A stretch of DNA of 64,000 nucleotides from an uncultured Caulobacterales bacterium. Lineage in GTDB: Bacteria; Pseudomonadota; Alphaproteobacteria; Caulobacterales; Maricaulaceae. The stretch spans positions 4,494 to 68,493 of the forward strand of contig CAYGTI010000017.1 in the NCBI GenBank assembly GCA_964352785.1, written 5' to 3'. A program made the translations under genes and the position numbers. How positions within the stretch are numbered: position 1 is the first letter of the stretch; every line of letters starts with the position of its first letter. Of this stretch, positions 30,852 through 45,420 are shown piece after piece. The notes below the pieces were generated by a model that was given only the letters and a program-made list of their open reading frames with translations, had not been told where the DNA came from and did no database searches.

Positions 30852-30856
30852 GTCTT

Positions 30857-31315
30857 ATGGAGATGATTATGAAAAAGTTTAAGAAGAAACACACCCTCCG
30901 CGATCAGGGTTTTACACTCGTTGAGGTCATGGTTGTTATGGTGATTATCGGTTTGCTGGCCACATTCGTTGTGATCAATGTTCTGCCCAGCCAAGACAAA
31001 GCGATGGTGCAAAAGGCCAAGGCGGACATTCGTTTGCTCGAGCAAGCTCTCGAGATGTACCGTTTGGATATGCTGGACTATCCCGACCCTGATGCCGGAT
31101 TGTTGGCCTTAAAGGCATTGCCAGCGGGAAGTGAAAATGTAGACCGTTACCGCGAAGGTGGCTACGTGAAATTTTTGCCGGATGATCCGTGGGGCCGTCC
31201 TTATCTTTACGTCTATCCAGGTGAAAACGGCGTTTTTGATATTATGTCATACGGATCGGACGGGCAGCCTGGCGGTGAAAAACAAGCCGCAGACATTGTA
31301 AGCTGGCAACAATAA
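30857..31315 (+). CDS. gspG: type II secretion system major pseudopilin GspG
   Basis: Prepilin leader and cleavage motif ...RDQG|FTLVEVMVVMVIIGLLA, and the GspG C-terminal signature DPWGRPYLYVYPGENGVFDIMSYGSDGQPGG. Confidence 0.95.
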   Translation: MEMIMKKFKKKHTLRDQGFTLVEVMVVMVIIGLLATFVVINVLPSQDKAMVQKAKADIRLLEQALEMYRLDMLDYPDPDAGLLALKALPAGSENVDRYREGGYVKFLPDDPWGRPYLYVYPGENGVFDIMSYGSDGQPGGEKQAADIVSWQQ

Positions 31316-31785
31316 GACGCGCGGCCCGCATATCACAGGCGGGATTCACGCTCGTCGAAGTTTTAACTGTCTTGGTTATTATCGGGCTGGTGTCCAGCGC
31401 TGTTGTTTTAACATTGCCCGGCGATAAGCCTGCAGAAGAGACCTATGCGAAACAATTAGTACGCGGGTCCAACGCCATGTCTCAATCCAGTTTACTGACA
31501 GGCATGCCTTCGGCGCTTGGCTTATCCGAGGATGGTTACGCGCTCATGGTTTTTGAAAACGGCACTTGGGTTGTGAAGTCAGAGCAAGCTCTACCCGAGG
31601 GTGTCCGTCTGACGTTTGAGAGAGAGGCACTCCCGGTGAAGCTTTCCGAAGACATAATGCCCGCTGCTATTTTTGAACCGTCCGGCCAAGCAACTGTGTT
31701 CTCCTTGGTGCTTTCGGGGCCGCAAAGACGCTATGAGCTTATTAGTCGTGGTGATGGACGTGTTGTTTTGGAGAGAGCTTCGTGA
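31312..31785 (+). CDS. gspH: type II secretion system minor pseudopilin GspH
   Basis: The prepilin motif QAG|FTLVEVLTVLVIIGL is encoded at 31336..31380, upstream of the track's TTG start (31372). The frame opens at 31279 with no ATG/GTG/TTG. ATA 31312 overlaps the gspG stop (ATAA) and gives a textbook leader (M)RRAARISQAG|F. CTG 31303 is the alternative. Confidence 0.7.
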   Translation: MRRAARISQAGFTLVEVLTVLVIIGLVSSAVVLTLPGDKPAEETYAKQLVRGSNAMSQSSLLTGMPSALGLSEDGYALMVFENGTWVVKSEQALPEGVRLTFEREALPVKLSEDIMPAAIFEPSGQATVFSLVLSGPQRRYELISRGDGRVVLERAS

Positions 31786-32156
31786 TGCCGCGTAAGCCTA
31801 AAAACCAAGCAGGGTTTACTCTGATAGAAGTGCTCGCCGCGCTGCTTGTGTTCTCTATTGCTATTATTGGCCTGACCCACGCCGGCACGGAAAGTGCTCG
31901 CGCTGTTGCGGCCATCAATGATAAAACACTCGCTGGTATTGTCGCAGACAATCAGCTGATTATGGCGCGCCGCACGTTTCCGCAAACCGGAGTGACCTCC
32001 GGTGAGGTTGCTGCGATGTCGCGTGAATTTATTTATGATGTTGAGACGACACAGACAGATGCGAGTGATCTCTACCGCTTAACCGTCAAAGTTCGGGCAA
32101 AGAGCCGCGACCAAATAATTGTTGAACGCACAGCCTTTCAGGCGGGAACGCCGTGA
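31782..32156 (+). CDS. gspI: type II secretion system minor pseudopilin GspI
   Basis: 124 aa with the prepilin motif NQAG|FTLIEVLAALLVFSIAIIGL. The gene order supports the call. The start is GTG 31782 or ATG 31785, overlapping the gspH stop. Confidence 0.85.
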   Translation: MMPRKPKNQAGFTLIEVLAALLVFSIAIIGLTHAGTESARAVAAINDKTLAGIVADNQLIMARRTFPQTGVTSGEVAAMSREFIYDVETTQTDASDLYRLTVKVRAKSRDQIIVERTAFQAGTP

Positions 32157-32791
32157 GCGCGCCGCGCCGTGATGCTGGCTTTACACTTGTTGAAGTGCTG
32201 ATCGCGATGTTTATTTTCGCGCTTATCTCCGCTGGGACCATGACTGCGCTGACTTCCACGCTACGGGGCAAGGCGCAAATGAATGAATGGCTAGATGATA
32301 TTAGCCGTATTGATTCCGCGCGCGCGCTCATGCGCTCAGACTTTTCCAACCTTTGGTTGCTGCCTGTTCGGGATGCTTACGGCAGTAACGAACTCTATGT
32401 CATGTCAGGCGGGGTTGATAATTTGATAGAATTCACCCGGGCGGGACGCAGCAACCCAGGAGGACTTGATGCGCGGAGCGAATTTCAACGGGTGAGTTAT
32501 GTCTTTGAAAATGGTGATCTTATCCGGCGCAGTCTTGTGCATGATAATCCTGCGCCTCAAACGCGGGCCATAGATCGTGTCCTGCTCAGCGGCCTTGAGG
32601 CCGTCTCTGTAAGATTTCATTTGCGTGTTGGCGGGACTGATCAACCCTCAAATTCGCGCCAACCTGACCTTGTGCAAGATTATATCTTGGTTGAAGCGGG
32701 GCAAACCCAAACCTTGCCTTACATTGTGAGTGTGGATGCCGCATTTAAAAATGGTGATAGATTGGTTCAACATTTTGAGCTGAGCCTATGA
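32153..32791 (+). CDS. gspJ: type II secretion system minor pseudopilin GspJ
   Basis: 212 aa with the prepilin motif RRDAG|FTLVEVLIAMFIFALISAG. GTGA overlap with gspI. Confidence 0.85.
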   Translation: MSAPRRDAGFTLVEVLIAMFIFALISAGTMTALTSTLRGKAQMNEWLDDISRIDSARALMRSDFSNLWLLPVRDAYGSNELYVMSGGVDNLIEFTRAGRSNPGGLDARSEFQRVSYVFENGDLIRRSLVHDNPAPQTRAIDRVLLSGLEAVSVRFHLRVGGTDQPSNSRQPDLVQDYILVEAGQTQTLPYIVSVDAAFKNGDRLVQHFELSL

Positions 32792-33780
32792 CCCGCTCAA
32801 ACAAAGAAGACGGTGCTGTCCTTCTCACGACCCTGCTCGTCATGGGCCTTATGGCAGCGTTGGCTGTGGCTCTGATCGAAGATGTACGATTTGCAGTTAA
32901 ACGTACGGGACATGTTCAGGCCTACGCGCAAGCCGACTGGTATGCTCAGGGCGCAGAGGCATTCGCGCAGACTTATCTCTCAAATCAGATCAAAAATTTG
33001 GACGGATCACAACTCAACACGATTATTCTGAACGCAGATCCAATAATTTTTCCTTATGAGGGCGGCGCGATGTCGTTAAGTCTTCAGGATGGATCAGGGT
33101 GCTTTGACTTGAGGCAGCTCTCAACCGAGCCTGGGCGTAAAGTCTTTCGGCAGCTTTTAACCGTTCTTGGATGGAACCCGGCGACTGCGGCGCGCCTCAC
33201 GTCAATTGCCATAGATTGGCAAGATGTGGACAGTCAGGTTTTGCCCGACGGAGCGGAAGACTACACCTATCTTGGACGACAGCCCGCTTACCGCACGCCC
33301 AATCGGGAGTTTGCTAGCATCACAGAGCTGCGCGCGCTGGAGACAATGACAGAGGCGAAATATCAAACCTTAAGGCCTTTTGTTTGCGCGCGCGGGGCAA
33401 GCGGCAACAGTACATCTGCCGGCGGCATCAATATTAATACGTTGACGCCTCGCGGCATGCCTTTGTTGGCGGCCGTTCTTGGCGGCGTTGACGGGATGCA
33501 GGTTGCGCAGCAACTGGTCACACAGCGCCCTGCCGGTGGATATGTTGACGAGGCACAGTTTCTCGCAGCGCCGGCCTTGGAGGGATTTACGATAAAACCC
33601 GAGATGGCTGTGGTGACATATGTGCCAGACTATATCCGTATTGAAGCCGACATCGTATATCTTCAAGCGCGGCGGCGAGCAGCCTATGAATTTTCGATTG
33701 AAGGCAGCGCAGCCGTCCGTATATATCGCGGGTTCGGAGACGAGGCTATGCGCCCCAGATTGGATACCCCGCCGACATGA
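32788..33780 (+). CDS. gspK: type II secretion system minor pseudopilin GspK
   Basis: 330 aa with a GspK-like N-terminus (GAVLLTTLLVMGLMAALAVAL.ED) and a helix-hairpin-helix-like C-terminal part. ATGA overlap with gspJ. Confidence 0.85.
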   Translation: MTRSNKEDGAVLLTTLLVMGLMAALAVALIEDVRFAVKRTGHVQAYAQADWYAQGAEAFAQTYLSNQIKNLDGSQLNTIILNADPIIFPYEGGAMSLSLQDGSGCFDLRQLSTEPGRKVFRQLLTVLGWNPATAARLTSIAIDWQDVDSQVLPDGAEDYTYLGRQPAYRTPNREFASITELRALETMTEAKYQTLRPFVCARGASGNSTSAGGININTLTPRGMPLLAAVLGGVDGMQVAQQLVTQRPAGGYVDEAQFLAAPALEGFTIKPEMAVVTYVPDYIRIEADIVYLQARRRAAYEFSIEGSAAVRIYRGFGDEAMRPRLDTPPT

Positions 33781-34835
33781 GTGATGATCTATATATATGG
33801 CTTGCTGAGGATATGTCCGGGCCTTGGTATTGGCGCTGCGGAGACGCAGCGGGCCTAGCGGGTAATGACATGGATAAAACAAAACTTGCTGACTTCGGAG
33901 CCAAGATCGTGAGCGCCGTTGTGCCGGGGCAGTCAGTGCGGATGCTAACGCACGACTTACCTAAGATGAGCGGCGCGGAGCAACGCGCCGCGGCCAGTTT
34001 TGCCATCGAAGATCAAATTGCACTGCCTTTACCTGATCAACACATTGTCCTGGGCCCCAGCCAAGACAAACGGATCGCCTTGATCACCAAGAGTAAAATG
34101 TCTGAAATTTTATCTGCGCTGCGCTCGCAGGGTTTGCGCCCCGGGGGCGTGTACGCTGACTTTGACGTTCTGCAAAGTGATGCGCCTGTGTTGCTGCCGG
34201 ATCGCCTCATTCATCCTGGGCCTTTGGGGTATGCGCTGGACCGGGATTGGGCCAATAGTGAGCAAGACGAAGAGCATCCAAACGCTGTTTTGGCCAGAAT
34301 TAATACTCAAGCAGCAGTGAATTTGATGACGGATGAATTTGCGCCAAAGAGCGCCTTCAGTTTAAAGCCCGCTCAAATGATGCGCGTCGCGGCTTTGTTG
34401 TTGGCTGTAGGCATTGTGTCCTTGGTGCTTGTTGCCGGGCAAAGCCGGGCCGTGTTTAAGCAAGCAGATTATATACGGGCGCAAACCGCCGAAATGTATT
34501 CTGATTATACAGGGCAACCCGCGCCCGCAAATCCAGCCTTGTCAGTTACGCGCGCCGTAAAGAACTCTGGCGGGGAAACCTCTGACTTTCTCGCGCTCTC
34601 GAGCCTTTTGTTCAAAGCTCTTGAAACATCAGACGGAATTACCGTCGATACGCTCCAATTTGACAATGCACAAAACAGATTGACGCTACGGCTTGTCTAT
34701 CCCCGGTTTGAAAGTGCGAGCGGGCTTGAACAATCCGTGCGTGCGGCGGGGGGTGAGTTTCGCTCGGGCGGCGTGCGCGAGCAGGGCGGGCGTCTTATCG
34801 GAGATGCGGTTTTGAGCGTTGGAGGCGGATCATGA
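33777..34835 (+). CDS. gspL: type II secretion system protein GspL
   Basis: 352 aa with a cytoplasmic actin-like domain, a single TM helix (MMRVAALLLAVGIVSLVLVAG) and a periplasmic domain. Position and ATGA coupling support the call. Confidence 0.8.
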   Translation: MSDDLYIWLAEDMSGPWYWRCGDAAGLAGNDMDKTKLADFGAKIVSAVVPGQSVRMLTHDLPKMSGAEQRAAASFAIEDQIALPLPDQHIVLGPSQDKRIALITKSKMSEILSALRSQGLRPGGVYADFDVLQSDAPVLLPDRLIHPGPLGYALDRDWANSEQDEEHPNAVLARINTQAAVNLMTDEFAPKSAFSLKPAQMMRVAALLLAVGIVSLVLVAGQSRAVFKQADYIRAQTAEMYSDYTGQPAPANPALSVTRAVKNSGGETSDFLALSSLLFKALETSDGITVDTLQFDNAQNRLTLRLVYPRFESASGLEQSVRAAGGEFRSGGVREQGGRLIGDAVLSVGGGS

Positions 34836-35287
34836 CCTTTTTAGCGGACAGAACACCGCGCGAGCGGATATTGGTTATGACGGCTCTCGCACTTGTGATT
34901 TTATTCGCGGGTTGGCAGTTTGGAATCAAACCTATCTTCGAGCGCAAAGCCGAGGCCGAGCAGGCGGTTGCAAACGCGCAGCGGGATATGGATATTGTGC
35001 GTTTAGGCCTTCCAAAAATTAGCACGGCTGCCACGTCTAATTTACAAGCATTCAACCGCGACGCCGCGATACAAACAGCCATACGTTTACAGCTTAACAT
35101 AGCGCGTATGCAGCCATCAGGAAATAACGGGCTGCAAATTTGGTTTGAAAATACGCAAAGTTTGACCGTGTACAGATTTATGACTGAGCTTACGGCCTCA
35201 CATAATGTTGCGATTCAGCGTGTGCAAATGACAGGCCGTGAGAACGGCTTTGTGAGCGCGCAAGTGACCTTGGCACCTATTTCATGA
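34832..35287 (+). CDS. gspM: type II secretion system protein GspM
   Basis: 151 aa with an N-terminal TM helix (RILVMTALALVILFAGW) followed by a short periplasmic domain. Gene order supports the call. Confidence 0.8.
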   Translation: MTFLADRTPRERILVMTALALVILFAGWQFGIKPIFERKAEAEQAVANAQRDMDIVRLGLPKISTAATSNLQAFNRDAAIQTAIRLQLNIARMQPSGNNGLQIWFENTQSLTVYRFMTELTASHNVAIQRVQMTGRENGFVSAQVTLAPIS

Positions 35288-35988
35288 AAAAACTTGCCGT
35301 TTTAGCGGTTTTTTGCTCCGCGCTTATGGGGCTTGTTTTGCATTTTCCGTTATCATGGATTGGCGCTTTGGTCCTGCCAAAAAACATATCTCCGAAGCCT
35401 GTTTTGTCCGGCACGGTCTGGCAAGGTAGCGTCAGCGGAATACCGCAAATCGGCGTGATCCATACATACGTCTCGGTGATAAATTTATTTACAGGACAGC
35501 CGCCTTTGTCATTTGAGTCGCGCGCGCCGTACTTGCAATTTTCCGGAACTGCGGGCATCAAAGGGTCCATAGCCGTCTCTTTGCAGGGCGATGTTCTGGG
35601 TATGACGTCTATTGATCGGCGGTTTTCAGGTCTACGGGGAACCTATTCGCTCACGCTCTCAGACATGATTTCTGGTAGTGGCTGCGAGGTGGCGTCCGGT
35701 ACATTCACAAGTGATATTTTGCAGCGTAACCGCGACGTGTGGAGGTGGCTGGGACCAGCCTTATCTGGGCCTGTAAGCTGTGAAGCAGGGGATGTGGTTC
35801 TTAATGTTAGCGGGCGTGATAATATGAATGATATTCAGGCAATTATTCGTATTGGGCCGTCTGGAACCTACCGGGCTGAGATTGATGTCACCACACAAGA
35901 CCCAAATATTGATACGGTATTGCCAATTTTTGGATTTCAAAAAAATGGCCCATCCTACAGATTATTGGAGGCGGGACGGTGGTATTAA
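35284..35988 (+). CDS. gspN: type II secretion system protein GspN
   Basis: 234 aa with an N-terminal anchor MKKLAVLAVFCSALMGLVL. It is the last canonical position of the operon. Confidence 0.7.
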   Translation: MKKLAVLAVFCSALMGLVLHFPLSWIGALVLPKNISPKPVLSGTVWQGSVSGIPQIGVIHTYVSVINLFTGQPPLSFESRAPYLQFSGTAGIKGSIAVSLQGDVLGMTSIDRRFSGLRGTYSLTLSDMISGSGCEVASGTFTSDILQRNRDVWRWLGPALSGPVSCEAGDVVLNVSGRDNMNDIQAIIRIGPSGTYRAEIDVTTQDPNIDTVLPIFGFQKNGPSYRLLEAGRWY

Positions 35989-36449
35989 GATGGCTATACA
36001 GCGCGCTATCTTGCGCTATATTTGCTGCGGGGTGTACGACCTTGCCAAGTATCCCTGCGTCTGTTGTCGCAGGGCCAGAGAGTGCTCTTACCCGTCTTTC
36101 GCCGATCACGTTGGGCGCGGGTGAATGCGGGCTTTTCGTTTGGACGGCCAGCGCGCAAAAGCGGTTTGTTTTGTTCAGTCAATCGCAAGAGGGAACGGGC
36201 GTATGGGTCAGTGAAAGCGGCGAGGAAAACCTAACGATAGATCAACAAGAGGGCACGTCCGCCCATAGTCAACGGCCAAAAATAGAGTTTAGAACGCCGC
36301 GTCAAGAACGGCTGGAACTGGACTTACGTCAAAGCCAAGCCATTACTGACGGGATGCGTTATAAGTCGGGAACGTTGACATTGACGTCTTTGGAGGGGTG
36401 GGAAAAGGTAACGCCCGTCGTCGGTTTATCGGCCTGTCAGGCCTTATAA
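35979..36449 (+). CDS. hypothetical lipoprotein, translationally overlapping gspN
   Basis: 156 aa with a GTG start 10 nt inside gspN and the lipobox IFAAGC. I recognise no family. Confidence 0.5.
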   Translation: MVLRWLYSALSCAIFAAGCTTLPSIPASVVAGPESALTRLSPITLGAGECGLFVWTASAQKRFVLFSQSQEGTGVWVSESGEENLTIDQQEGTSAHSQRPKIEFRTPRQERLELDLRQSQAITDGMRYKSGTLTLTSLEGWEKVTPVVGLSACQAL

Positions 36450-36537
36450 TGTATTTCACGTTTAGTCGTACTTAGATCGCAATGGGGAAATGAGTGAGAA
36501 AAGCCCAATTTCCTATTCACGAGAATTGCGCTAATGT

Positions 36538-37041
36538 TTATGAGATTAAAGCCGCCGTCCAAACCATGAAAATACCCAGCGCAAGACATGGCCCAAAGGG
36601 AATGCGTCCTTCGTCGGCGAGTTTGCGAAACGACGGAAACATAAGCGCAGCCAGTCCCATACCGCTCGCAATTAAAACAATGAACGGCAGTCCGTACCAG
36701 CCGCACCATGCTCCGCCCGCAGCCAGCAGTTTGGCGTCGCCTCGTCCAAGGCCGTCAACGCCACGTAGCTTCTTGAATGCGATTTCAATCAGCACAAAAA
36801 CGCCGTAACCAATAGCTGCGCCTAGGAGACTGGCTTTTATGTTGCCGGTGAGCACCCATGATTGCAAAATACCCATAAGAATAAGTGGCAGTGTCAGATT
36901 GTTTGGCAGACGAAAGGTCTTTAAATCAATCCATGACAAGACCGCCAAGATTCCGAAAAGCACCGCTGTAAAAATATAGATCAAATCGATTATGTCCGGG
37001 GCTTGCGGCGTGGAAAAGACCAACCAAACAAAAGCGCGCAT
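36538..37041 (-). CDS. A24-family prepilin peptidase, short form without the N-terminal methyltransferase/zinc-finger domain
   Basis: This is the C-terminal 167 aa of track ORF 36538..37428. The first catalytic Asp context is LSWIDLKTFRLPN and the second is GLGRGDAKLLAAGGAW, across about 5 TM helices. The start is set at MRAFVWLVF (comp 37039..37041), because the upstream 129 codons are R/C/H-rich and overlap the TRIC gene. Confidence 0.7.
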   Translation of the reverse strand: MRAFVWLVFSTPQAPDIIDLIYIFTAVLFGILAVLSWIDLKTFRLPNNLTLPLILMGILQSWVLTGNIKASLLGAAIGYGVFVLIEIAFKKLRGVDGLGRGDAKLLAAGGAWCGWYGLPFIVLIASGMGLAALMFPSFRKLADEGRIPFGPCLALGIFMVWTAALIS

Positions 37042-37604
37042 CCACGGACAATAAAGGCACATGTTCCGCCAAGTGCCAACGCCGTGATTTCCGGCGTTCC
37101 GTAGCGCGCGGCAAGGCAATAGACGAGCCCGCCGATGAGCGCGGCGGTGGCGTAAATCTCTTTTTGCAAAATGAGCGGAATTTCGTTGCAAACAATATCC
37201 CGGATCATCCCCCCAGCAGCAGCCGTGACAATGCCCATGGCCACGCTGATCGTTATATTTTGTGTGAGTGCGTAAGTTTTTGAGGCACCCAAAACGCAAA
37301 AAAGAGCCATACCTACAGCATCTGCCCATTCCAGTACGGTGAGCCGTCTGCCGATGCGCGGCGGAAATGTAAATATAAGAATTGCGGCGCAAATGGCGAG
37401 CCAAATATAGACAGGAGCGCCGAGCCAAAAAACGGGCACATCGAGGATAAGGTCGCGCAAAGTGCCGCCGCCGATGGCTGGAAACATGGCTAGAACGATG
37501 TGCCCAAAAATATCCATATCATTGCGGTTAGCGGCCAGTGCGCCTGTCAACGCGAAGACGAAAACGCCTAAAAAGTCTAAATATGTAATGATTGAAAGAC
37601 CCAT
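36990..37604 (-). CDS. trimeric intracellular cation channel family protein (UPF0126/YadS-like)
   Basis: 204 aa with two UPF0126 repeats (FVFALTGALAA...GGGTLRD and MGIVTAAAGGMIRD) and seven hydrophobic helices. Confidence 0.75.
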   Translation of the reverse strand: MGLSIITYLDFLGVFVFALTGALAANRNDMDIFGHIVLAMFPAIGGGTLRDLILDVPVFWLGAPVYIWLAICAAILIFTFPPRIGRRLTVLEWADAVGMALFCVLGASKTYALTQNITISVAMGIVTAAAGGMIRDIVCNEIPLILQKEIYATAALIGGLVYCLAARYGTPEITALALGGTCAFIVRGCALLFGWSFPRRKPRT

Positions 37605-37609
37605 CTTAT

Positions 37610-38626
37610 TTAGAAGCGATAGCTGATTCGGTCAGCGGCCCGGCAAAATAGATCAAGTTCGTTCAGGCAAACGCGTTCCATATTCGTTACCAATTGTGGC
37701 AAACTGATATCCTGCCCGTCTTTTGTTTGAGACGCTTCTTCGATGTCCCGGACATATTGCTCGTACCGGGTTTGAGATTGTTCTTCGAGCAAGGCATTAT
37801 CCATAATGGCCTCAGTCGACCCAAGAATGAAAAGCGTGACAGCCGTAAAGTCGATCCAGGCTGTATCAAGACCTGTCCAAACCGGTTCTGCGATTTTTAC
37901 CCCTAAAGAGATAAAGGCGAACACTGCTGCGCCCAAATAAATCATATCCTGTGTTGAGTTGAAAATGCGCCGCCGTCCTGAAAAGGCCACAACTTCGCCA
38001 AGGGCAAAATTGCGTTGATAAGCTACCCTGAGTTCCATGTAGGCCTCGCGCGCCATTGTCGCGATCCCGGCATGAGCGGCTTTCTTAGGCAGCTTCATAG
38101 GCTCCATAACGGTGCCGGGTGAGAAGTTTTTTAAAACAGCAATTCCAGCATTCATTTCATTTTCTAATCTGGCGAGGTGTTTTTGCACGAAAGTTTGAGT
38201 CAGTGTCTCAAGGTGATCTGTATTTTTTGCAGACTGCGCTAGTTGAAACGCTTGAAATTTTAAACTCCGCAGACGCTCAGCGGCAAAACGGTTTAATATC
38301 CATTTTTGTTTTTGCTTGGTCCCAATCAAATACCACTGGAGCACAATCCCAATTCCGGCCATGGTCACAGCGGCGAACTTTAGAATGACATTATTGAGAA
38401 TACCTTTGAGTATCAAAGCCTCGGCGATAGTAAAAATAGCGCTCGCGGCCACCAAGAGGATCGCGATCTGACCTAGATAATGATACCGTTTTTTTGCTGC
38501 ATTTGCCTGCCGCTCATGACCTATGAAGACATCGTCAAGTATCGCTAAATGGATAAGCGGGGTGATGAGTTTGTAGTGTGACTGCGTGGTGTCAGTGGCA
38601 AACAAGTCACGGTTTGGCGTTTGCAT
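37610..38626 (-). CDS. four-TM protein with two SLATT-like (2TM) modules
   Basis: 338 aa. Module 1 has helix AKKRYHYLGQ, TM ~50-72, TM ~79-101, then KWILNRFAAERLRSLKFQAF. Module 2 has REAYMELRVAYQRNF, TM ~228-245, TM ~255-275, then RYEQYVRDIE. The AGAGG SD precedes the ATG. SLATT is assigned by pattern memory only. Confidence 0.5.
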   Translation of the reverse strand: MQTPNRDLFATDTTQSHYKLITPLIHLAILDDVFIGHERQANAAKKRYHYLGQIAILLVAASAIFTIAEALILKGILNNVILKFAAVTMAGIGIVLQWYLIGTKQKQKWILNRFAAERLRSLKFQAFQLAQSAKNTDHLETLTQTFVQKHLARLENEMNAGIAVLKNFSPGTVMEPMKLPKKAAHAGIATMAREAYMELRVAYQRNFALGEVVAFSGRRRIFNSTQDMIYLGAAVFAFISLGVKIAEPVWTGLDTAWIDFTAVTLFILGSTEAIMDNALLEEQSQTRYEQYVRDIEEASQTKDGQDISLPQLVTNMERVCLNELDLFCRAADRISYRF

Positions 38627-38695
38627 AAGGAGCCTCTTGTCGAATTTCCCATGACTCTACGAAGCCTTGCAAGAATGAGCAAGTCAGTTACAGTT

Positions 38696-38730
38696 TTATC
38701 AGTGAACGGCTGGAGCATTTTATCTGATAA
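38696..38730. promoter_or_regulatory. inverted repeats in the divergent SLATT-like / protease promoter region
   Basis: TTATCAG (38696..38702) and CTGATAA (38724..38730) form an inverted repeat. The right arm is part of an 11-bp palindrome TTATCTGATAA (38720..38730), 22 nt upstream of the protease ATG. Confidence 0.3.
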
Positions 38731-38751
38731 GCTGTTTGCTAGGGAGCGCAT

Positions 38752-41139
38752 ATGCCTTGTTTGTCTAAGAACTTTCTTATTTTAGCTGTGTTTACAATCG
38801 CTTTGATGGAGACATCTGGCGCTCAAACAAACTCAGACTTTATCCCACCGCCTGAAAAACCTTTGGTGGAGGGCAAGGACATAAAGTCAAAGGATTATTT
38901 CCCGATAGACCAAAGACTAGTTGACAAAAGGGCGGAGGATACAAGGCGTTATTGTGAGCCTATAATAGCCGCTGGTCAAAGATGTACGCCGCCAGTCTCG
39001 TCTTTTCGATCTGTACCTGTTCCGCGTTACGCCGCACCTTTTCAGGTTCAGCTTGTGACAACGGCAAAGCTTGTCACGGATAAATATTTGACAGACACCT
39101 ATAAAGACCGCCCCATGTGGGAGCTGCGCCATGCCTGCGGCGGTGCTTTGATTGACCGCGAATGGGTCCTGACCGCCGCGCATTGTTTTATTGATAACGC
39201 AAAGCCGGAGCATTACGGGGTTAGGCTTGATGTAGATAATATCTCACAGTCGGCATCTGATACGTTCGAGATAAAAGATATAATCACGCCGGAAAATTTC
39301 AACCGCACAGATATAGAAAATGATATTGCTCTGGTCCGCATTGAGGCGGCGGATGCAAAGCTTATTATCCAAGACTATTCCCCCATTAGAAATGGAGCTA
39401 AGCGTGAAAACGCAGTTGTGAAAAGTTACGTCTTTAGGAATGGGCGCACGCTTGTCACGGTAGGGGCGGACCGCCAACTCAAGGCGTGGGATACAGAGAG
39501 CGGAAAGCTGCTTGCTCAAAGAGAAACTTTGAACGCCGAGATGGGCGAAGGTTTAATTGAAAGAAATGGGTCTTTATTTGGAGCTGATCAGCAGGGCATA
39601 TGGAGTTTTGATCTGGCTTCCGGTCGCGCGGGCGCAAAGCTGCAAACGGATAAGGCGTATGGCTGGGCGTTATCAGAGGATGGAAAATGGCTAATGACTT
39701 ACGCAGAGGGCCACGCTGCGCAGCTTTGGGACGTTAAAACGGGCACGAAGGCTGCAGCCCTCGATCATGGCAACGTTGTAGATATTATTGATTTTGTTGC
39801 TCGCGGCCGGGCCGTAACAGCCTCATATGAAGGTGATCTAAAATTATGGGATATTAATCGCCAAACCGTACTGGCATCTGTTTCAAACGTGAGAGGCGAC
39901 CCAGCTTATATGAGCTTTGATAAAGGGCGTAAGCTTTTAGTGACAACAGATAGTTCAATGACAATTATTCAGATGCGCGATGGCAAGATTTTAAAAACGC
40001 TCGATGCAGAAGGTTTAAATGATGCACGCCTTCCGCCAATGATTGTAGCTGACGAACAAGCACTCGTGACATGGCAATTTAATGAACCCGTTAAAATATG
40101 GGATTTAAAGCAAGGGGATCTGCGCCGCCACATTTCTGTTGGCCAAAATATTTCATCTTTAATTTTTGACCACAAAAGCGATCGGTTATTGGGGTGGGAT
40201 ATGTCTGGGCATATCGAAGTCTGGGATGTCAAAACAGGAAAAATCCTCTCCAAAAAATATCTCGAAGAGGCGAACTTCAATTTAAGCGTCTCGTTTTTTG
40301 ATCAGGGCCGCAAATTTATGACGAGCCTTGCGAGCGGTGTGACTCAAGTGTGGGAGGCTGAGAAGAGCGACAATCTCTATACCATTGATCATAGCCTTCC
40401 TATAGCCGGAGCGCGTCTATCGGAAAATGAGCGGTATATATTGAGCTGGAGTGAGCATGGAACGGCTGAGATATGGGACGCCAAAACCGGGCGGGCGATA
40501 AAACGTTTGTTTCACGGGGCCTCGGTTGAAGGCTTGTCTTTGTTTAATAAAGACCGCTCGCTACTCACATGGGGACGGGCAGGCAAAGCCAGGATATGGG
40601 ACATTAAATCAGGCCGAGAAACTGCCCGTGTGGTGCACCCCAGGCCTGATACCGATAGCATTCAAGACCGCTCATCACACCGCGATGCCAAGCCCTCACT
40701 CGTGAGCGTTGTCGACCTTGCGCGCGGCGAAGCTGACTTGTTGGCGGATGACGTACTTTTTACTTATGGCTGGGGTAAAACGCGACCTGTCGCTGGGTTT
40801 GAACCGTCATCGACATTGAGAATGGTTGGGCTGCAACGTTTGACCAATGCCGCATGCCTTGAAACGTCTGGCTGGGGCGACGATGTTTTAGACAGCAGTG
40901 TTTTTTGTGCCCATGATGCGCGCCGTAAAACCTGTTACGGGGATAGCGGCGGGCCCGTAATAGGCAATGATAGGGTCGTTGGCGTTGTCAGTTGGGGCTC
41001 CGGTACGTGCGGCGAAGACGGAAAACCAGGGGTGTACACCCGCGTGTCAGAGCATTTGGCTTGGATATATCGAGCGGTTTGCCCGAAATATCCAGATGCG
41101 AATAATCGTCCCGCATTTTGTCCCAGCCTTAACCCTTAG
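38752..41139 (+). CDS. secreted trypsin-fold (S1) serine protease with an internal ~10-repeat WD40-like insertion
   Basis: 795 aa. It has a signal peptide ending SGA|Q, His motif WVLTAAHC (H144) and Asp motif NDIALVRI (D191). Ten ~41-aa WD-like units lie between residues ~215 and 630. These are followed by FTYGWGKT, CYGDSGGPV (S732) and VVSWGSGTCG..KPGVYTRV. AGGGAG SD. Confidence 0.8.
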   Translation: MPCLSKNFLILAVFTIALMETSGAQTNSDFIPPPEKPLVEGKDIKSKDYFPIDQRLVDKRAEDTRRYCEPIIAAGQRCTPPVSSFRSVPVPRYAAPFQVQLVTTAKLVTDKYLTDTYKDRPMWELRHACGGALIDREWVLTAAHCFIDNAKPEHYGVRLDVDNISQSASDTFEIKDIITPENFNRTDIENDIALVRIEAADAKLIIQDYSPIRNGAKRENAVVKSYVFRNGRTLVTVGADRQLKAWDTESGKLLAQRETLNAEMGEGLIERNGSLFGADQQGIWSFDLASGRAGAKLQTDKAYGWALSEDGKWLMTYAEGHAAQLWDVKTGTKAAALDHGNVVDIIDFVARGRAVTASYEGDLKLWDINRQTVLASVSNVRGDPAYMSFDKGRKLLVTTDSSMTIIQMRDGKILKTLDAEGLNDARLPPMIVADEQALVTWQFNEPVKIWDLKQGDLRRHISVGQNISSLIFDHKSDRLLGWDMSGHIEVWDVKTGKILSKKYLEEANFNLSVSFFDQGRKFMTSLASGVTQVWEAEKSDNLYTIDHSLPIAGARLSENERYILSWSEHGTAEIWDAKTGRAIKRLFHGASVEGLSLFNKDRSLLTWGRAGKARIWDIKSGRETARVVHPRPDTDSIQDRSSHRDAKPSLVSVVDLARGEADLLADDVLFTYGWGKTRPVAGFEPSSTLRMVGLQRLTNAACLETSGWGDDVLDSSVFCAHDARRKTCYGDSGGPVIGNDRVVGVVSWGSGTCGEDGKPGVYTRVSEHLAWIYRAVCPKYPDANNRPAFCPSLNP

Positions 41140-41184
41140 GTCTAAAATCAGAGCTTTAGCAGTATTATCGCTAGATAAACCTTA

Positions 41185-41382
41185 TCACTGATTTTCGATA
41201 GGCCCGGTAAGTCCGCCGCCCGTTGGGCATTTGGGGTATCCCGGAGTTTTAGGCGTACAGGCTTGCTTCGTGGATTCGCTTGATGGCTTGTCCACTGCCT
41301 CGTCTGTCGTCTTTGTGTTGGTGTGCGCGCAACCTGACATTATTAAAAACAATGTCGTGCCTATAATACCGTATAATTTCAT
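41185..41382 (-). CDS. small lipoprotein (65 aa), downstream of the TIR gene
   Basis: Lipobox LIMSGC. The mature peptide of about 48 aa is Thr/Pro/Lys-rich with two further Cys (QACTPKTPGYPKCPTGGG). It starts 25 nt after the TIR-TPR stop on the same strand. Confidence 0.45.
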   Translation of the reverse strand: MKLYGIIGTTLFLIMSGCAHTNTKTTDEAVDKPSSESTKQACTPKTPGYPKCPTGGGLTGPIENQ

Positions 41383-41407
41383 AAAAACTCTCCCCTTCTA
41401 AGTATCT

Positions 41408-43351
41408 CTAATCCGAAAACCCGAGCGCGGCAAGCATATCTGAAAACTCTGTCTTTGACCTCAGCGGATCAAGTGCCGGGTCGACCTTTGCAAGGATAAG
41501 GCCCGAGTCGTTTAATTTAATCGCTTTTTCCATCATTTTAACCGCCAAATCGACCTCTCCCCATTGAGACAAGATTTGAACTTGTTGATAAGCCCCCGCG
41601 TCGCCAAAAGTATCTATGAGTTGTTTTTGCGCCGCTTTTGCCTGATCAGTTCTCCCCAACTTGTTGAAGGCAATCGCGAGGCAGGGTAGGCGTTCCATCT
41701 GATTTTTTTCATCTTCGCAGACGTTAGTTGCTTCTTCAAAGCGGCCGAGCGCAATCAGTGCATTGCCGATCTGAGATTTAGCATTTGTATGTTTTGGAGA
41801 TAAATTCAACGCGTGCTGCGTGGCCTTGATTGACGCCTCATAGCGGCGTGAAAAGTATAAAATCGTCCCATCAGTTCTATGGATTGTTGGATTTAAAGGG
41901 TCGAGTGTTTTGGCGCGGTTAATTGAACTGATGGCTTCAGTTTGTTGTCCGGTAACCGCTTTGTAAGTCGCGTAGCGGGCCAAGATTGTTGCGCTTCCAA
42001 ATCCAAGTTCCCTAGATTTTTCATAAGGGACTTTAGCGCCCTTAATATCAAGCTGGGCGAATTTGACATAGGCGAGTGAGGATTGTGCTATGGCTGAATT
42101 CGGGCTTTGCCTAACGGCCAAATTCGCCGAGTTCAGAGCTGCTGCAAAGTACGAACTTACCGTCTCTTGGTCGGAACTGGTTGCGCCAAGCCAAAGAAGT
42201 AGTCTGGCTTTTGCGGCGTGTGCTCGGCTAAAACTGGGATCAAGGTTTACGGCTCTGTCAAGATGTTCGAGGGCTACGAGATTGGAGGTGCGGCTGATGT
42301 TTGATCTAAAAAGGTCAGTGCCTTTGAGGTATTCGGTAAAGGCTGCGGGGTTTTCAGTTTCTGCAGTTTCTGCCGCGATATTTGTTTGGCTCACTTTTTG
42401 AGTCAACACGCCTGTAATTGCTTCGGCAATTAGATTGTGGATTTTCAGGGTCTCGTTTTCTGTATGCTGAAACGTTTTGCCCCAAACGTTAAAACCTGTT
42501 TTGCCATTTATAAGCTCTGCTGTGACGCGCATATCTGCGCCTTCGCGGCTTACATTCCCATCCAAAATATGAGCGACGCCCAAGCGTTTTGCGATATCTT
42601 TTGCCGTTAATGATTGACTGGCCAGAGCTTCTGAAGAGGAGCGCGAGACGACTTGAAGCGCTTGATTGCGTGCAAGGCTTATGCGCAGTTCTGATGATAG
42701 CCCGGCTGAAAGGTAATCTTGCGCGCTATCACCGCTGGCGTTACGAAAAGGGAGTACGGCGACGCCGTTCTCAAGAAGATTTGCGCCCTTTGCAAAAAGC
42801 CCGCTCGTGATGGAGAGGCCGCCGCCAATAGCTACCACAGCGCTCGCGCCCGCCATCATCACATGTCTACGCGAGAGTACCGCTTTGGGTTTTGAGTGCA
42901 CGGCCCGTCGTTTTGGGACGTTTCCTCCGTGCATAACTGCCAGCATGCGTACTAACTCTTGGATGCTGGACGAGGTGTCATCGCCGTCCCATTTTTGGAT
43001 GTCGATAAGTTGAACTTGCCGAAATCCCAAAGGCGCGATTGTTCCGTCCAATGTTAGAGGAATGAGCCTCTCGCGTACCCGTCCGCTCGTGGCTTCATCA
43101 CGCACCCAATGAGACGATATGGAGGTCTTTGACCATAGCACGACAACGGCTTTGGCAGACTCGAGGGCCTCTTCGGTTGTTTCTAAAAAACTGGTGCCGC
43201 CTTCAAGCATGCCGTCCCACCACACGCGGTATCCGGCTGCTTCAATGGCGTCAATAATAGGAAGAGCTTGTGCTTGGTCGACTCGCGAATAGCTGAAAAA
43301 GACGGTCGTAAGTTCCGCGTCTTTATCGTCGTGTTCGTCTGATTGCGCCAT
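41408..43351 (-). CDS. TIR domain - TM - periplasmic TolB-N-like/TPR repeat protein
   Basis: 647 aa. The N-terminal TIR domain reads TVFFSYSRVDQ...YRVWWD...AKAVVVLWSKTSISSHWVRDEA, with the conserved Glu at residue 86. A TM helix spans ~164-187 (VMMAGASAVVAIGGGLSITSGLFA). Next comes VAVLPFRNASGDSAQDYLSAGLSSEL.., a motif seen in periplasmic modules of TPR-linked receptors. TPR-like helical repeats then run to the C-terminus. Confidence 0.8.
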   Translation of the reverse strand: MAQSDEHDDKDAELTTVFFSYSRVDQAQALPIIDAIEAAGYRVWWDGMLEGGTSFLETTEEALESAKAVVVLWSKTSISSHWVRDEATSGRVRERLIPLTLDGTIAPLGFRQVQLIDIQKWDGDDTSSSIQELVRMLAVMHGGNVPKRRAVHSKPKAVLSRRHVMMAGASAVVAIGGGLSITSGLFAKGANLLENGVAVLPFRNASGDSAQDYLSAGLSSELRISLARNQALQVVSRSSSEALASQSLTAKDIAKRLGVAHILDGNVSREGADMRVTAELINGKTGFNVWGKTFQHTENETLKIHNLIAEAITGVLTQKVSQTNIAAETAETENPAAFTEYLKGTDLFRSNISRTSNLVALEHLDRAVNLDPSFSRAHAAKARLLLWLGATSSDQETVSSYFAAALNSANLAVRQSPNSAIAQSSLAYVKFAQLDIKGAKVPYEKSRELGFGSATILARYATYKAVTGQQTEAISSINRAKTLDPLNPTIHRTDGTILYFSRRYEASIKATQHALNLSPKHTNAKSQIGNALIALGRFEEATNVCEDEKNQMERLPCLAIAFNKLGRTDQAKAAQKQLIDTFGDAGAYQQVQILSQWGEVDLAVKMMEKAIKLNDSGLILAKVDPALDPLRSKTEFSDMLAALGFSD

Positions 43352-43426: not shown

Positions 43427-44485
43427 TTAGCGAGGTTTGCTGGGCTTTTTGAGATCAAGCGCAACATCAACAATCATATCCTCTTGTCCGCCGACCATTC
43501 TGCGCCGCCCCAGCTCAACCAGAATGTCACGCGTGTCCAAGCCGTAATCTTGGGCGGCTTTTTCTGCGTGGCGCAAGAAACTGGAATAGACTCCTGCATA
43601 ACCAAGGCTCAAGGTCTCGCGGTCAACGCGGACGGGCCGATCTTGTAAGGGCCGAACTAAATCTTCTGCGGCGTCCATCAGTTTGAAAACATCACAACCA
43701 TGGTTCCATCCCTTTTTATCAATAGCTGCAATAAAGACTTCAAGCGGGGCATTGCCTGCGCCTGCGCCCATAGCCGCCAAAGAGGCATCGATGCGCCGTG
43801 CGCCGTTTTGGACGCCAACAATAGAGTTTGCCACGCCAAGGGATAAATTATGATGCGCATGTACGCCGCGCTCGGTTTCCGGCTTCAGGATATCATTGTA
43901 AGCTTGCAGCCGCGCCGCATAGCCGTCCATATCCAGAGCACCGCCAGAATCGGTGACGTAAATACACTCTGCGCCGTAGTCCTCCATCAACTTGGCTTGC
44001 TGGGCGAGATGACCGGGCTCTGCCATATGGCTCATCATGAGAAAGCCTACCGTATCCATGCCAAGCTCTCGGGCCATTTCAATGTGCTGTCGTGAGACGT
44101 CGGCTTCGGTGCAGTGGGTGGCCACGCGCACAGAGCGTACCCCTAAATTATAGGCGCGCCGTAGCTCGTCGATAGTCGCAATCCCGGGCAAAATAAGTGT
44201 TGTGACGATGGCGGTCTCTACAACATCACAGACGGCTTCGATCCATTCCCAATCTGTATGCGCGCCAAATCCATAATTAAAAGCCCCGCCGTTCAGCCCA
44301 TCCCCATGAGCAATCTCAATGGCGTCCACACCGGCCTCGTCGAGCGCTTTGGCAATGGCGCGCACATGGTCAACCGAATATTGGTGCCGAATAGCATGCA
44401 TGCCGTCGCGCAGTGTCACGTCTTGGATATACAGACGGTCTTTGCACGGATCGGTGATCACGCCCTTGTGTCTCTCCTGGCTCAT
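43427..44485 (-). CDS. dmpG: 4-hydroxy-2-oxovalerate aldolase
   Basis: 352 aa with the DmpG/MhpE/BphI signature [42 protein letters not shown] and [15 protein letters not shown]. Confidence 0.9.
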
Positions 44486-45420
44486 GCCGCAGCCCCAAAT
44501 TTTAGTTTTGCGATTTTCTCGGCTGTACCCAGTGCCGCCGAGGTCATAATGTCGAGATTACCTGCATAGGCTGGTAGGTAATGCCCGGCACCTTCGACTT
44601 CGAGAAAAACGGTGACTTTCATGCCCTCATAGGTCCCAAGTCCGGGGATATGTAGCTTATTATTTCCGGAAAAATTCTCAAACTGTACATCCTGTTTTAA
44701 GCGGTAACCCGGCACATAGGCCTGCACATCACTGACCATCTCCGCCACGGACTTGCGGATATTAGCCTCGTCTCCGCCCACAGATAAAGCGTAGACCGTA
44801 TCTCGCATGAGCATAGGAGGTTCTGCCGGGTTTAAAATGATGATTGCTTTGCCTTTTTGTGCGCCGCCAACGCTTTCTATGCCGCGCGCCGTAGTGCGCG
44901 TAAATTCATCAATATTGGCGCGGGTGCCCGGTCCCGCCGAGCGGGACGAAACCGACGCGACGATTTCTGCGTATGGTACGCTTTGGCTCACGCGGGTGAC
45001 AGCATGTACAATCGGGATCGTTGCTTGACCACCGCAAGTGACCATGTTCACATTTGGCGCATCAAGATGTTCGTCTATATTGACGACAGGCACGCAGTAA
45101 GGGCCAATAGCGGCCGGCGTTAAATCAATCATCTGCTTGCCTTGGCTCGTGCAAATATCTGAATGCAGTTTGTGGGCATAGGCAGATGTGGCATCAAAAA
45201 CGATATCAACATCAGGCCAAATATCCAGCGCTTGCGCCCCGTCTATGCCTGTGTGGCTGGTAGAAAAACCGCGATTCCGGGCCATAGCCAGACCTTCCGA
45301 AGCTTCATCGATACCAATGACGCAGCCCACGTCTAAAATGTCTGACATATGCTGTATTTTCAGCATCAGATCTGTACCGATATTTCCGGAGCCGATAATA
45401 GCTGTTTTTATTTTAGCCAA
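44482..45420 (-). CDS. dmpF: acetaldehyde dehydrogenase (acetylating)
   Basis: 312 aa with the Rossmann motif [13 protein letters not shown] and the catalytic Cys context [12 protein letters not shown]. It overlaps dmpG by 4 nt, as in known DmpFG pairs. Confidence 0.9.

Follow-up and report, generated by a model that had tools for sequence, protein, structure and literature searches.

A conserved alphaproteobacterial gene set predicted to link a periplasmic protease and a lipoprotein to a transmembrane TIR receptor

Introduction

In the Drosophila Toll pathway, a signal runs from a serine-protease cascade through cleaved Spätzle to the Toll ectodomain and a cytoplasmic TIR domain. In the RRNPP systems (Rap-Phr, NprR, PlcR), extracellular serine proteases release a C-terminal peptide from a secreted precursor, and the receptor is a TPR protein. 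To our knowledge, the described bacterial TIR systems (Thoeris, TIR-STING, SPARTA, TIR-NLR) sense cytoplasmic events. In Thoeris type VII, a validated system, the TIR protein ThsB makes canonical cyclic ADP-ribose, which activates the SLATT effector ThsH (preprint of December 2025, bioRxiv 10.64898/2025.12.03.692087). SLATT/DUF4231 effectors with two transmembrane (TM) helices belong to the systems of antiphage signalling based on cyclic oligonucleotides (CBASS) and to further conflict systems that signal through nucleotides (Burroughs et al. 2015, as cited in PMC7159879), and SLATT proteins together with TIR and trypsin are mentioned only for systems centred on a nucleoside triphosphatase (NTPase) (Kaur et al. 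2020, PMC7159879). Our literature searches turned up no description of a TIR receptor in the membrane whose partners are a lipoprotein and a trypsin. Here we analyse four adjacent genes of this kind, called A to D, in a 64,000-nucleotide stretch of DNA (“the window”) from an uncultured bacterium of the Caulobacterales (contig CAYGTI010000017.1): A encodes a multi-pass membrane protein, B a secreted serine protease of the S1 family, C a single-pass membrane protein with a TIR domain, and D a small lipoprotein.

An initial annotation of the window, made from its letters, had put the four genes forward as a candidate envelope-spanning module of an immune type. We find that the receptor, lipoprotein and protease genes form a widespread conserved core, that the specificity pocket of the protease varies together with the tail of the lipoprotein, and that A is joined to this core in one marine clade. 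In our reading, to which we give a probability of roughly 45%, C, D, B and A make up a transmembrane TIR pathway that reads a periplasmic proteolytic event, most likely as an envelope-surveillance or conflict module.

Results

A receptor, a lipoprotein and a protease form the conserved core

Two samples of loci were compared with the window. In the first, one genome per species was scanned with an alignment of A homologues, which yielded 42 loci; the second, centred on the receptor, comprised 82 loci, namely the best 80 of at least 477 metagenome hits together with L047 and L048, many of them incomplete at their ends. Genes in these loci were taken as stop-to-stop open reading frames (ORFs) and scored with iterated hidden Markov models (HMMs) built from the window proteins. 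The full set of A, B, C and D was recovered in 13 loci (the window, L001-L004, L007-L009, L049, L056, L129, L130 and L134), in three gene orders (C> D> <B A>; <B C> D> A>; B> <D <C A>), and the genes around these loci vary between genera; L049, L056, L129, L130 and L134 came from metagenome and assembly look-ups. Given 13 loci and three orders, the adjacency of the four genes is not a matter of chance, so the neighbourhood that the initial annotation had seen once is a conserved one. By its own refuting condition, that proposal would have failed had the adjacency been unique to this genome. The TIR gene and A are directly adjacent in L009, in L039 and in other TIR-A pairs; in the window, B and D lie between them.

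The receptor-centred sample shows how this set is layered. At least 1.5 kb is available downstream of C in 54 of the 82 loci, and in 44 of these a convergent trypsin gene starts 180-530 nt after C. The gap between receptor and protease holds a gene for a small lipoprotein in about 40 loci, where the product has a signal peptide, a lipobox and an acidic linker rich in Ala, Pro and Glu, and ends either in a short Gly-rich tail or in tandem pentapeptide repeats. The receptor family is large: clustering at 90% identity gives at least 345 clusters, and the metagenome stretches number at least 477. Thus, the conserved core is C, D and B, and it is widespread in Alphaproteobacteria. The WD40 insert of B and gene A were seen only in the receptor loci closest to the window, and are additions in a marine clade (Hyphomonadaceae, Maricaulaceae, Algimonas, Litorimonas, Hellea, Henriciella). 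The four genes are therefore not the one indivisible module that had been supposed, since the core mostly occurs without A or the WD40 insert, and A pairs with other genes elsewhere.

Several loci vary on this arrangement. In the marine loci L050-L055, an Asp-pocket protease of 522-530 amino acids (aa) is encoded divergently from a Lys-pocket WD40 protease (L050:5162-6751, L054:12532-14097), while two tandem trypsin genes lie behind the receptor in L090 (2377-4668) and L114 (10295-12642). A second trypsin gene in some receptor loci could amount to a two-step protease cascade. A plasmid search returned one full-length C homologue, on a 1.8-Mb replicon of Novosphingobium sp. RL4; here a receptor and a lipoprotein gene are present (L131:7939-8184) with no trypsin gene detectable downstream, an exception to the trio.

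The protease pocket varies with the tail of the neighbouring lipoprotein

Position 189 of chymotrypsin, at the floor of the specificity pocket, corresponds to the residue that precedes the catalytic Ser by six positions. This residue varies among the receptor-linked proteases, and it tracks the C-terminal tail of the lipoprotein encoded next to it. Proteases with an Asp pocket are found beside tails made of tandem repeats that each end in Arg ((A/T)STDR, GSDDR, TGPDER), in three lineages with 34-46% protease identity; those with a Phe pocket lie beside GSTDQ or GSNDQ repeats, again in three lineages (35-51% protease identity); and those with a Lys, Arg or Ser pocket, from many lineages, lie beside Gly-rich tails (EGQGGGERVGN, SGGDKVKP, TGGGLTGPI). 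In the window, the pair belongs to the Lys type, with an invariant K726 at the pocket position of B and, at the end of D, a Cys loop followed by TGGGLTGPIENQ. Covariation of this kind is expected if the lipoprotein tail is a substrate or pseudo-substrate of the protease. It lends independent support to the earlier guess that the trigger would be periplasmic and proteolytic, and we predict that D is the substrate or pro-ligand of B.

The same three genes could instead work as a relay like that of DegS and RseA, in which B would cut the ectodomain of C and so free the TIR domain to assemble, and D would be an adaptor, an inhibitor or an outer-membrane tether like RseB or RcsF. A secreted S1 protease, a single-pass protein and a lipoprotein with a disordered linker do indeed make up the parts list of DegS/RseA/RseB and RcsF/IgaA, and the genes C, D and B are tightly conserved together. 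In addition, the residue that follows the lipobox Cys of D is not Asp in the loci seen, which by the sorting rule of Escherichia coli suggests anchoring in the outer membrane, although that rule may not apply in Alphaproteobacteria. The covariation of pocket and tail, however, points to D as the recognised partner, and we regard such a relay as distinctly unlikely.

The closest relative of the window locus, L129, has matching flanks: dmpFG borders the cluster at one end, and the TRIC-like gene, the prepilin peptidase gene and the type II secretion genes border it at the other. Between the two loci, B, D and C are the most diverged genes of the region, with 44%, 43% and 57% identity respectively, against 93% for DmpG, 87% for GspE and 76% for A; evolution is quickest in the extracytoplasmic parts. 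The products of the type II secretion genes GspJ to GspN are also only 54-61% identical between the window and L129, so that quick divergence is general among the periplasmic and membrane components of this lineage.

Protease B and lipoprotein D

The Pfam Trypsin family matches B (E=3.5e-40, 138.6 bits) in two stretches that flank propeller matches at residues ~220-630, and a hydrophobic, signal-like segment is found at the N-terminus. The catalytic triad (H144, D191, S732) is invariant in 19 homologues. An AlphaFold 2 (AF2) model of B (predicted local distance difference test score, pLDDT, 74) has about 10 four-stranded blades at residues 222-628, lying between an N-terminal barrel (99-208) and a C-terminal barrel (649-764). 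The propeller matches belong to several families (E 1e-25 to 1e-10), all of them under the cut-offs of those protein-specific models, and the best Foldseek matches of the insert are tandem-WD propeller proteins (E~1e-22). Taken together, these data agree with the initial description of B as a signal-bearing S1 protease with a WD40-like insertion. Most partner proteases of C are 370-460 aa long and have no such insert, and we regard the propeller of B as a clade-specific extra binding surface. Across the receptor-linked proteases the Ser motif is present in 82 of 93 and the His motif in 81 of 93, with a signal-like N-terminus in 42 of 51, several of which have a lipobox.

Secreted S1 proteases are common, and in Hyphomonas a stand-alone trypsin gene occurs without an adjacent receptor, as might be expected if B were an ordinary degradative enzyme and C a non-enzymatic scaffold or a regulator of its expression or secretion. 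We consider this very improbable: the catalytic-type Glu and the surrounding motif of the TIR domain are invariant, a specific lipoprotein whose tail matches the pocket is kept between C and B, and the stand-alone Hyphomonas proteases have a different pocket residue, Gly.

The start codon of D lies 25 nt past the stop of C on the same strand. The window protein begins MKLYGIIGTTLFLIMSGC, and it has a signal peptide and lipobox (..IMSGC), the lipobox Cys, an acidic linker, a C-terminal Cys loop and then a TGGGxxGPI tail. Both the lipobox and the motif C..GDPxYPKC.TGGG..GPI are conserved in 15 aligned homologues. With an invariant lipobox Cys, D is predicted to be a lipoprotein, as first proposed. 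The C-terminal module, that is the Cys loop and the GGG tail, occurs as a tandem duplicate in L002:2350-2661 and L056:9863-10204.

Receptor C combines a conserved TIR domain with a variable ectodomain

The Pfam family TIR_2 matches C far above its cut-off (E=7e-22, 78.6 bits against 28), and 25 homologues show no variation at W82, V83, D85, E86 or A87, which bears out the TIR domain with a catalytic-type Glu that had been read from the sequence. Hydropathy reveals a single TM helix. A Lys/Arg-rich stretch precedes it, from which a cytoplasmic N-terminus is predicted. The ectodomain, about 460 aa long, was matched by TPR families and TPR_END_plus in domain HMM searches. The TIR domain is the best-conserved region of the family, at 62% mean pairwise identity compared with 37-39% for the ectodomain; against the L129 counterpart, the corresponding values are 85% and 51-56%.

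The juxtamembrane part of the ectodomain had been described initially as TolB-N-like. No TolB_N similarity was recovered by Pfam at residues ~190-345, and a PDB sequence search gave no match, the one result being weak similarity to LptE (E=0.007). On these sequence searches the assignment was rejected; the label “TolB-like” comes only from Joint Genome Institute (JGI) names of homologues.

The ectodomain of C (residues ~197-645) aligns at 25-33% identity with rhizobial adenylate/guanylate cyclases. An ectodomain of the C type recurs in rhizobial adenylate/guanylate cyclases and TPR proteins encoded on plasmids, which number in the hundreds (L132:4401-6275 is an example locus). The ectodomain, being shared with cyclases, is thus a reusable sensor module with interchangeable outputs. 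As for the topology laid out in the initial annotation, the predictions here agree with it: the TIR domain and the soluble parts of A are assigned to the cytoplasm, whereas B, D and the TPR region are assigned to the outer side of the cytoplasmic membrane.

Protein A belongs to a SLATT-like family linked to TIR genes

Hydropathy and an AF2 model place four TM helices in A, at residues 54-72, 80-98, 228-246 and ~259-279, and the model is all-helical with a pLDDT of 89.7. The N-terminal module is a two-TM hairpin with Lys/Arg-rich flanks N-terminal of TM1 and C-terminal of TM2. In Pfam it falls short of the cut-offs (DUF4231 23.1 bits versus 24.7; SLATT_3 19.3 versus 26.3), and the NCBIfam SLATT_1 and SLATT_3 scores of the window protein are far under theirs. 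At the level of the family, the similarity is more consistent: DUF4231 is matched in 27 of 32 members and SLATT_3 in 24 of 32 at E≤0.01 (best 1e-7), and two distant members exceed the cut-off, with 26.7 and 30.8 bits.

The initial annotation had called A a tandem of two SLATT-like modules, and this stands for the first module, which is DUF4231/SLATT-like at family level. The second is another matter. A pattern of a helix, a TM hairpin and two helices occurs twice in the AF2 model; the C-terminal halves of the family have weak SLATT_1 matches in 3 of 10 (E 0.012-0.036), and comparison of the two halves of A by hhalign was not significant (E=0.23), so that an internal duplication is unsupported by profile comparison. 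A Foldseek search of the PDB for fold relatives of A gave nothing usable (best E=0.08, TM-score <0.25, all helices of ABC transporters).

The family is well defined in size: an exhaustive profile search found 683 representatives at E≤0.001, nearly all of them full-length, at 330-385 aa. A TIR gene is present in 22 of the 42 A-centred genome loci. In most of the encoded TIR partners, the TIR domain is N-terminal, a TM helix lies near residue 170-260 and the C-terminal region varies, being TPR, FGE-sulfatase, WD40 or of no known type; in L026, a TIR-NACHT gene lies 2 kb from A. Of three distant relatives of A, one adjoins a prokaryotic STING gene and one shares an operon with a TIR_2 gene. A thus belongs, at family level, to the DUF4231/SLATT-like group and is repeatedly linked to TIR or STING genes, which supports the SLATT-like assignment of the initial annotation. 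We predict that it is the output or effector partner of the TIR enzyme, with its soluble parts in the cytoplasm.

Individual loci of the family add further detail. Distant members lie in L135:351-2539 and L136:407-4690, where the STING neighbour has a nucleoside-deoxyribosyltransferase-like N-terminus; another distant member sits in a four-gene operon, where its companions are a protein of 606 aa without annotation, one of 80 aa and a TIR_2 protein of 312 aa. In L006:2188-3753 and L011:8212-9729, a TIR-TM-FGE-sulfatase protein is encoded directly upstream of the A homologue, a second type of ectodomain on the same TIR/TM chassis. In the Henriciella metagenome-assembled genome of L009, A is flanked by a receptor of the TPR type and, on the other side, by the start of a second TIR gene (4221-4427) whose N-terminus resembles the TIR-FGE-sulfatase proteins of L006 and L011, so one A gene may serve two receptors there. 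In Sphingomonas colocasiae (L046:1335-7863), an A homologue is divergent from a gene for a 453-aa TIR_2 protein without a TM helix, followed by genes for an AAA_5 ATPase and a 1386-aa protein with penicillin-binding-protein transpeptidase domains, with Fic, Ivy and extracytoplasmic function (ECF) sigma/FecR genes nearby; this is a different, NTPase-containing context. Finally, L021 and L022, labelled Acidobacteria and Candidatus Sulfopaludibacter, have an A homologue, a TRIC-like gene and a trypsin gene in the same order as in Hyphomonas, from which we conclude that these contigs are probably mis-binned.

Genes and flanks of the window cluster

All four ORFs were found where the initial annotation had placed them, with the domains that it gave them apart from the points discussed above (Table 1). 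The flanks are likewise as first described, with a Gly_transporter/TRIC-like gene and a Peptidase_A24 prepilin peptidase gene on one side and dmpFG on the other. On the first side, a complete type II secretion set (GspE to GspN) together with the prepilin peptidase occupies window positions 28135-36984; on the second, dmpFG lies at 43427-45420 without other meta-cleavage genes. Both cluster flanks are kept in L129. The cluster contains no NTPase gene, in agreement with the initial annotation. A and C lie in different transcription units in the window.

Table 1. Coordinates of the four genes and their features in the window.
Feature	Position	Strand	Description
Gene A	37610..38626	-	338 aa four-TM all-helical membrane protein; ORF confirmed
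A-B divergent intergenic gap, 125 bp	38627..38751	.	Presumed promoter region for A and B
Gene B	38752..41139	+	795-aa secreted S1 (trypsin-fold) serine protease with beta-propeller between barrels
WD40-type propeller insert of B	39394..40686	+	Residues ~215-645, about 10 blades
Catalytic Ser732 codon of B (GDSGGP)	40945..40947	+	Invariant column
Gene D	41185..41382	-	65-aa predicted lipoprotein; ORF confirmed
Gene C	41408..43351	-	647-aa predicted single-pass membrane receptor
C periplasmic ectodomain (predicted)	41411..42784	-	Residues 190-647; juxtamembrane domain with conserved VLPFxN motif, then TPRs and TPR end-of-group
C TM helix	42806..42862	-	Residues 164-182, hydropathy
C TIR domain	42953..43303	-	Residues 17-133, TIR_2
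C catalytic-type Glu86 codon	43094-43096	-	

The protease gene had been thought AT-rich by eye, and this was not borne out: the G+C content (GC) of B is 0.491, compared with a mean of 0.512 (standard deviation 0.027) for 41 other window genes (z=-0.76). The GC z-scores of the cluster genes run from -0.4 to -1.5, and both GC and GC at third codon positions of A, B and C lie within 1.5 standard deviations of those 41 genes. A compositional anomaly or recent transfer was rejected on these values together with the synteny with the closest relative. Consensus scans found 14 promoter-like sites where 7.8 were expected and 12 terminator-like sites where 8.6 were expected, none of them within 38627-38751, and were uninformative.

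Discussion

A predicted order of events

In the pathway that we propose, B would be exported as an active S1 protease, as its triad and signal-like segment suggest, and D would likewise be exported and lipid-anchored, with a disordered acidic linker and a short conserved tail. B would then cut the tail of D, a step suggested by the covariation of the B pocket with that tail, and the TPR ectodomain of C would read either the tail or the released peptide, to which the conserved three-gene arrangement and the known peptide binding of TPR domains both point. Occupancy of the ectodomain would change the packing of the TIR domain and switch on NAD+ cleavage or cyclisation, an activity suggested by the invariant Glu. 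Finally, in a step modelled on ThsH of Thoeris type VII, an NAD+-derived product, or the loss of NAD+, may act on A, which would open or disrupt the membrane; the cytoplasmic helices of A carry conserved basic and aromatic residues. In genomes with C, D and B only, the TIR NADase itself may be the output.

Points against the pathway and the place of A

A number of observations weigh against this pathway. We infer the cleavage of D by B, the binding of peptide by C, the activity of the TIR domain and the response of A from the genes themselves. The association of an Asp pocket with an Arg/Lys-rich tail gives p=2.6e-4 in a 2x2 Fisher test that is uncorrected for phylogeny, and we know of no established specificity for a Lys at position 189. 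Ten of the 54 assessable receptor loci have no convergent protease, the trypsin gene lying elsewhere in four and being absent in six. The A-D loci lie among housekeeping genes and not in defence islands; no relatives of A or C were found in the viral contigs searched; and PADLOC (PADLOC-DB 2.0.0, from 2023 and so older than Thoeris type VII) gave weak hits to TIR and protease domains, with no system-specific component and none for A. Moreover, the window locus is syntenic with L129, which indicates vertical inheritance at that scale.

The remaining points concern A. Relative to L129, it is as conserved as the housekeeping genes. In the window, 5 nt separate its stop from the start of the TRIC-like gene (36990-37604), the same pair overlaps in L129 (7977-9619), and the two may be co-transcribed or preserve an old synteny. 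In most loci of Hyphomonas, A has no TIR gene beside it but is surrounded by dehydrogenase and hydrolase genes, with a TRIC-like gene about 3 kb away (e.g. L015:13840-14424), and most receptor-centred loci have no A. All of this would fit an A that stands outside the pathway, as a lineage membrane protein kept next to C, D and B by inherited synteny and possibly working with the TRIC-like channel; its 76% identity to the L129 counterpart is much like that of the flanking genes. However, the adjacency of A to C, D and B persists across three gene orders with differing flanks, at least five other TIR architectures pair with A, a STING gene does so in distant relatives, and in several Hyphomonas loci a TIR gene is inserted directly next to A. 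On balance, we think it quite improbable that A is a bystander, and we keep it as the predicted membrane output of the TIR enzyme.

Defence or self-signalling

Since the cluster has no GC anomaly, no defence-island context and no phage-borne copies among the viral contigs searched, the immunity reading put forward initially is an analogy and not a finding. The further claim that the cluster matches no named defence system holds for one half of it: PADLOC (2023) returned no system match and the literature searched gave no account of the periplasmic input, but the output half corresponds to Thoeris type VII. In other words, the combination of TIR and SLATT already has a name, while neither the periplasmic input nor a TIR domain that serves a transmembrane receptor as its output seems to have been described.

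The housekeeping context, the synteny with the closest relative and the lack of a GC anomaly would suit a physiological self-signalling system, in which D would be a pro-peptide, B would release small peptides from it, the TPR ectodomain of C would be the peptide receptor, as in Rap-Phr, the TIR product a second messenger and A a regulated channel. The signal would then concern cell density, kin type or the integrity of the envelope and not an invader, and killing would not be required. In some D tails, every tandem repeat closes with a residue that matches the pocket, so that several copies of a peptide would result, and the C-terminal module of D is duplicated in L002 and L056. Furthermore, close relatives differ strongly in B, D and the C ectodomain but much less in the TIR domain and A, a pattern that resembles pherotype diversification, and the C ectodomain also occurs in fusions with adenylate cyclases, an ordinary kind of signalling output. 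Yet an arms race fits the fast divergence equally well, characterised bacterial TIR enzymes with this Glu and SLATT-type partners all act in conflict or abortive systems, and relatives of A adjoin STING, TIR-NACHT and other TIR genes typical of conflict systems. We therefore see self-signalling as a possible, if doubtful, alternative to envelope surveillance or conflict.

Wider meaning

If the proposed pathway is correct, bacterial TIR signalling can report events beyond the cytoplasmic membrane, and bacteria have a system laid out like animal Toll signalling. More broadly, and tentatively, hundreds of Alphaproteobacteria might carry a design like that of Toll and Spätzle, with a SLATT-type pore in one marine clade, in which protease specificity, ligand tail and ectodomain co-diversify. 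In such a design an S1 protease, sometimes two, would mature a tethered small-protein pro-ligand, and the TIR domain of the receptor would give an NAD+-derived signal. The protease and the lipoprotein tail, as a matched pair, offer a testable handle on specificity. Members of the receptor family are plentiful in Alphaproteobacteria from soil, freshwater and marine habitats, and experiments are feasible in cultured carriers, which include Algimonas porphyrae, Algimonas arctica, Novosphingobium sp. RL4 and Sphingomonas colocasiae.

Comparison with known systems

Beginning with the separate parts, A resembles the SLATT/DUF4231 effectors in its 2TM hairpin with cytoplasmic helices, in HMM similarity and in its linkage to TIR or STING genes. 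It differs in being a fixed two-module family of its own, of ~340 aa, whose second module is not detectably SLATT by sequence. The ectodomain of C is shared with rhizobial cyclases, where the output is a cyclase and not TIR, and in L132, the one neighbourhood examined, there is no annotated trypsin or lipoprotein partner.

With the DegS-RseA-RseB and RcsF-IgaA relays of E. coli, the cluster shares an S1-family protease in the periplasm that carries an extra sensor domain, an inner-membrane signal transducer with one pass and a small lipoprotein with a disordered linker. The output here is TIR, whereas it is an anti-sigma factor or a phosphorelay there; the sensor domain is a WD40 propeller or none here and PDZ there, and the sequence relationship does not go beyond the protease fold. 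The RRNPP systems are alike in having a TPR receptor, a small secreted precursor and fast diversification of receptor and peptide. Those receptors, however, are cytoplasmic, need peptide import, occur in Firmicutes and have other outputs, whereas the TPR region here is predicted to be periplasmic and part of a membrane protein.

On the output side, the closest match is Thoeris type VII, which likewise links a gene for a TIR with a catalytic Glu to one for a SLATT-type membrane protein, with no NTPase, and whose logic, activation of a membrane effector by a TIR-made NAD+ derivative, is the one predicted here by analogy. The words periplasm, sensor and membrane-anchored are absent from the text of the preprint that describes it (bioRxiv 10.64898/2025.12.03.692087). 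ThsB was assayed as a soluble cytoplasmic TIR protein that responds to phage infection, whereas C crosses the membrane once and carries a large TPR ectodomain in the periplasm; and where Thoeris type VII has two genes, the present cluster has two further conserved ones, B and D, predicted to supply the input. In A, moreover, the four TM helices fall into two modules and the match to SLATT/DUF4231 models is only borderline, and in the window A and C lie in separate transcription units. In addition, the loci described here lie outside defence islands and are known from their genes.

As a whole, the predicted layout is that of the Toll pathway: an extracellular protease of the S1 fold would act on a small secreted protein, which would be read by a single-pass receptor with a repeat ectodomain and a cytoplasmic TIR domain, and some of the bacterial loci have two protease genes. 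The parts differ in kind, the ectodomain being made of TPRs here and of leucine-rich repeats in Toll, and the candidate ligand a lipoprotein tail here and a cystine-knot dimer in Toll. The bacterial TIR domain is predicted to be an NAD+-cleaving enzyme, whereas that of Toll is an adaptor scaffold. The likeness is thus one of arrangement, and common descent is not implied.

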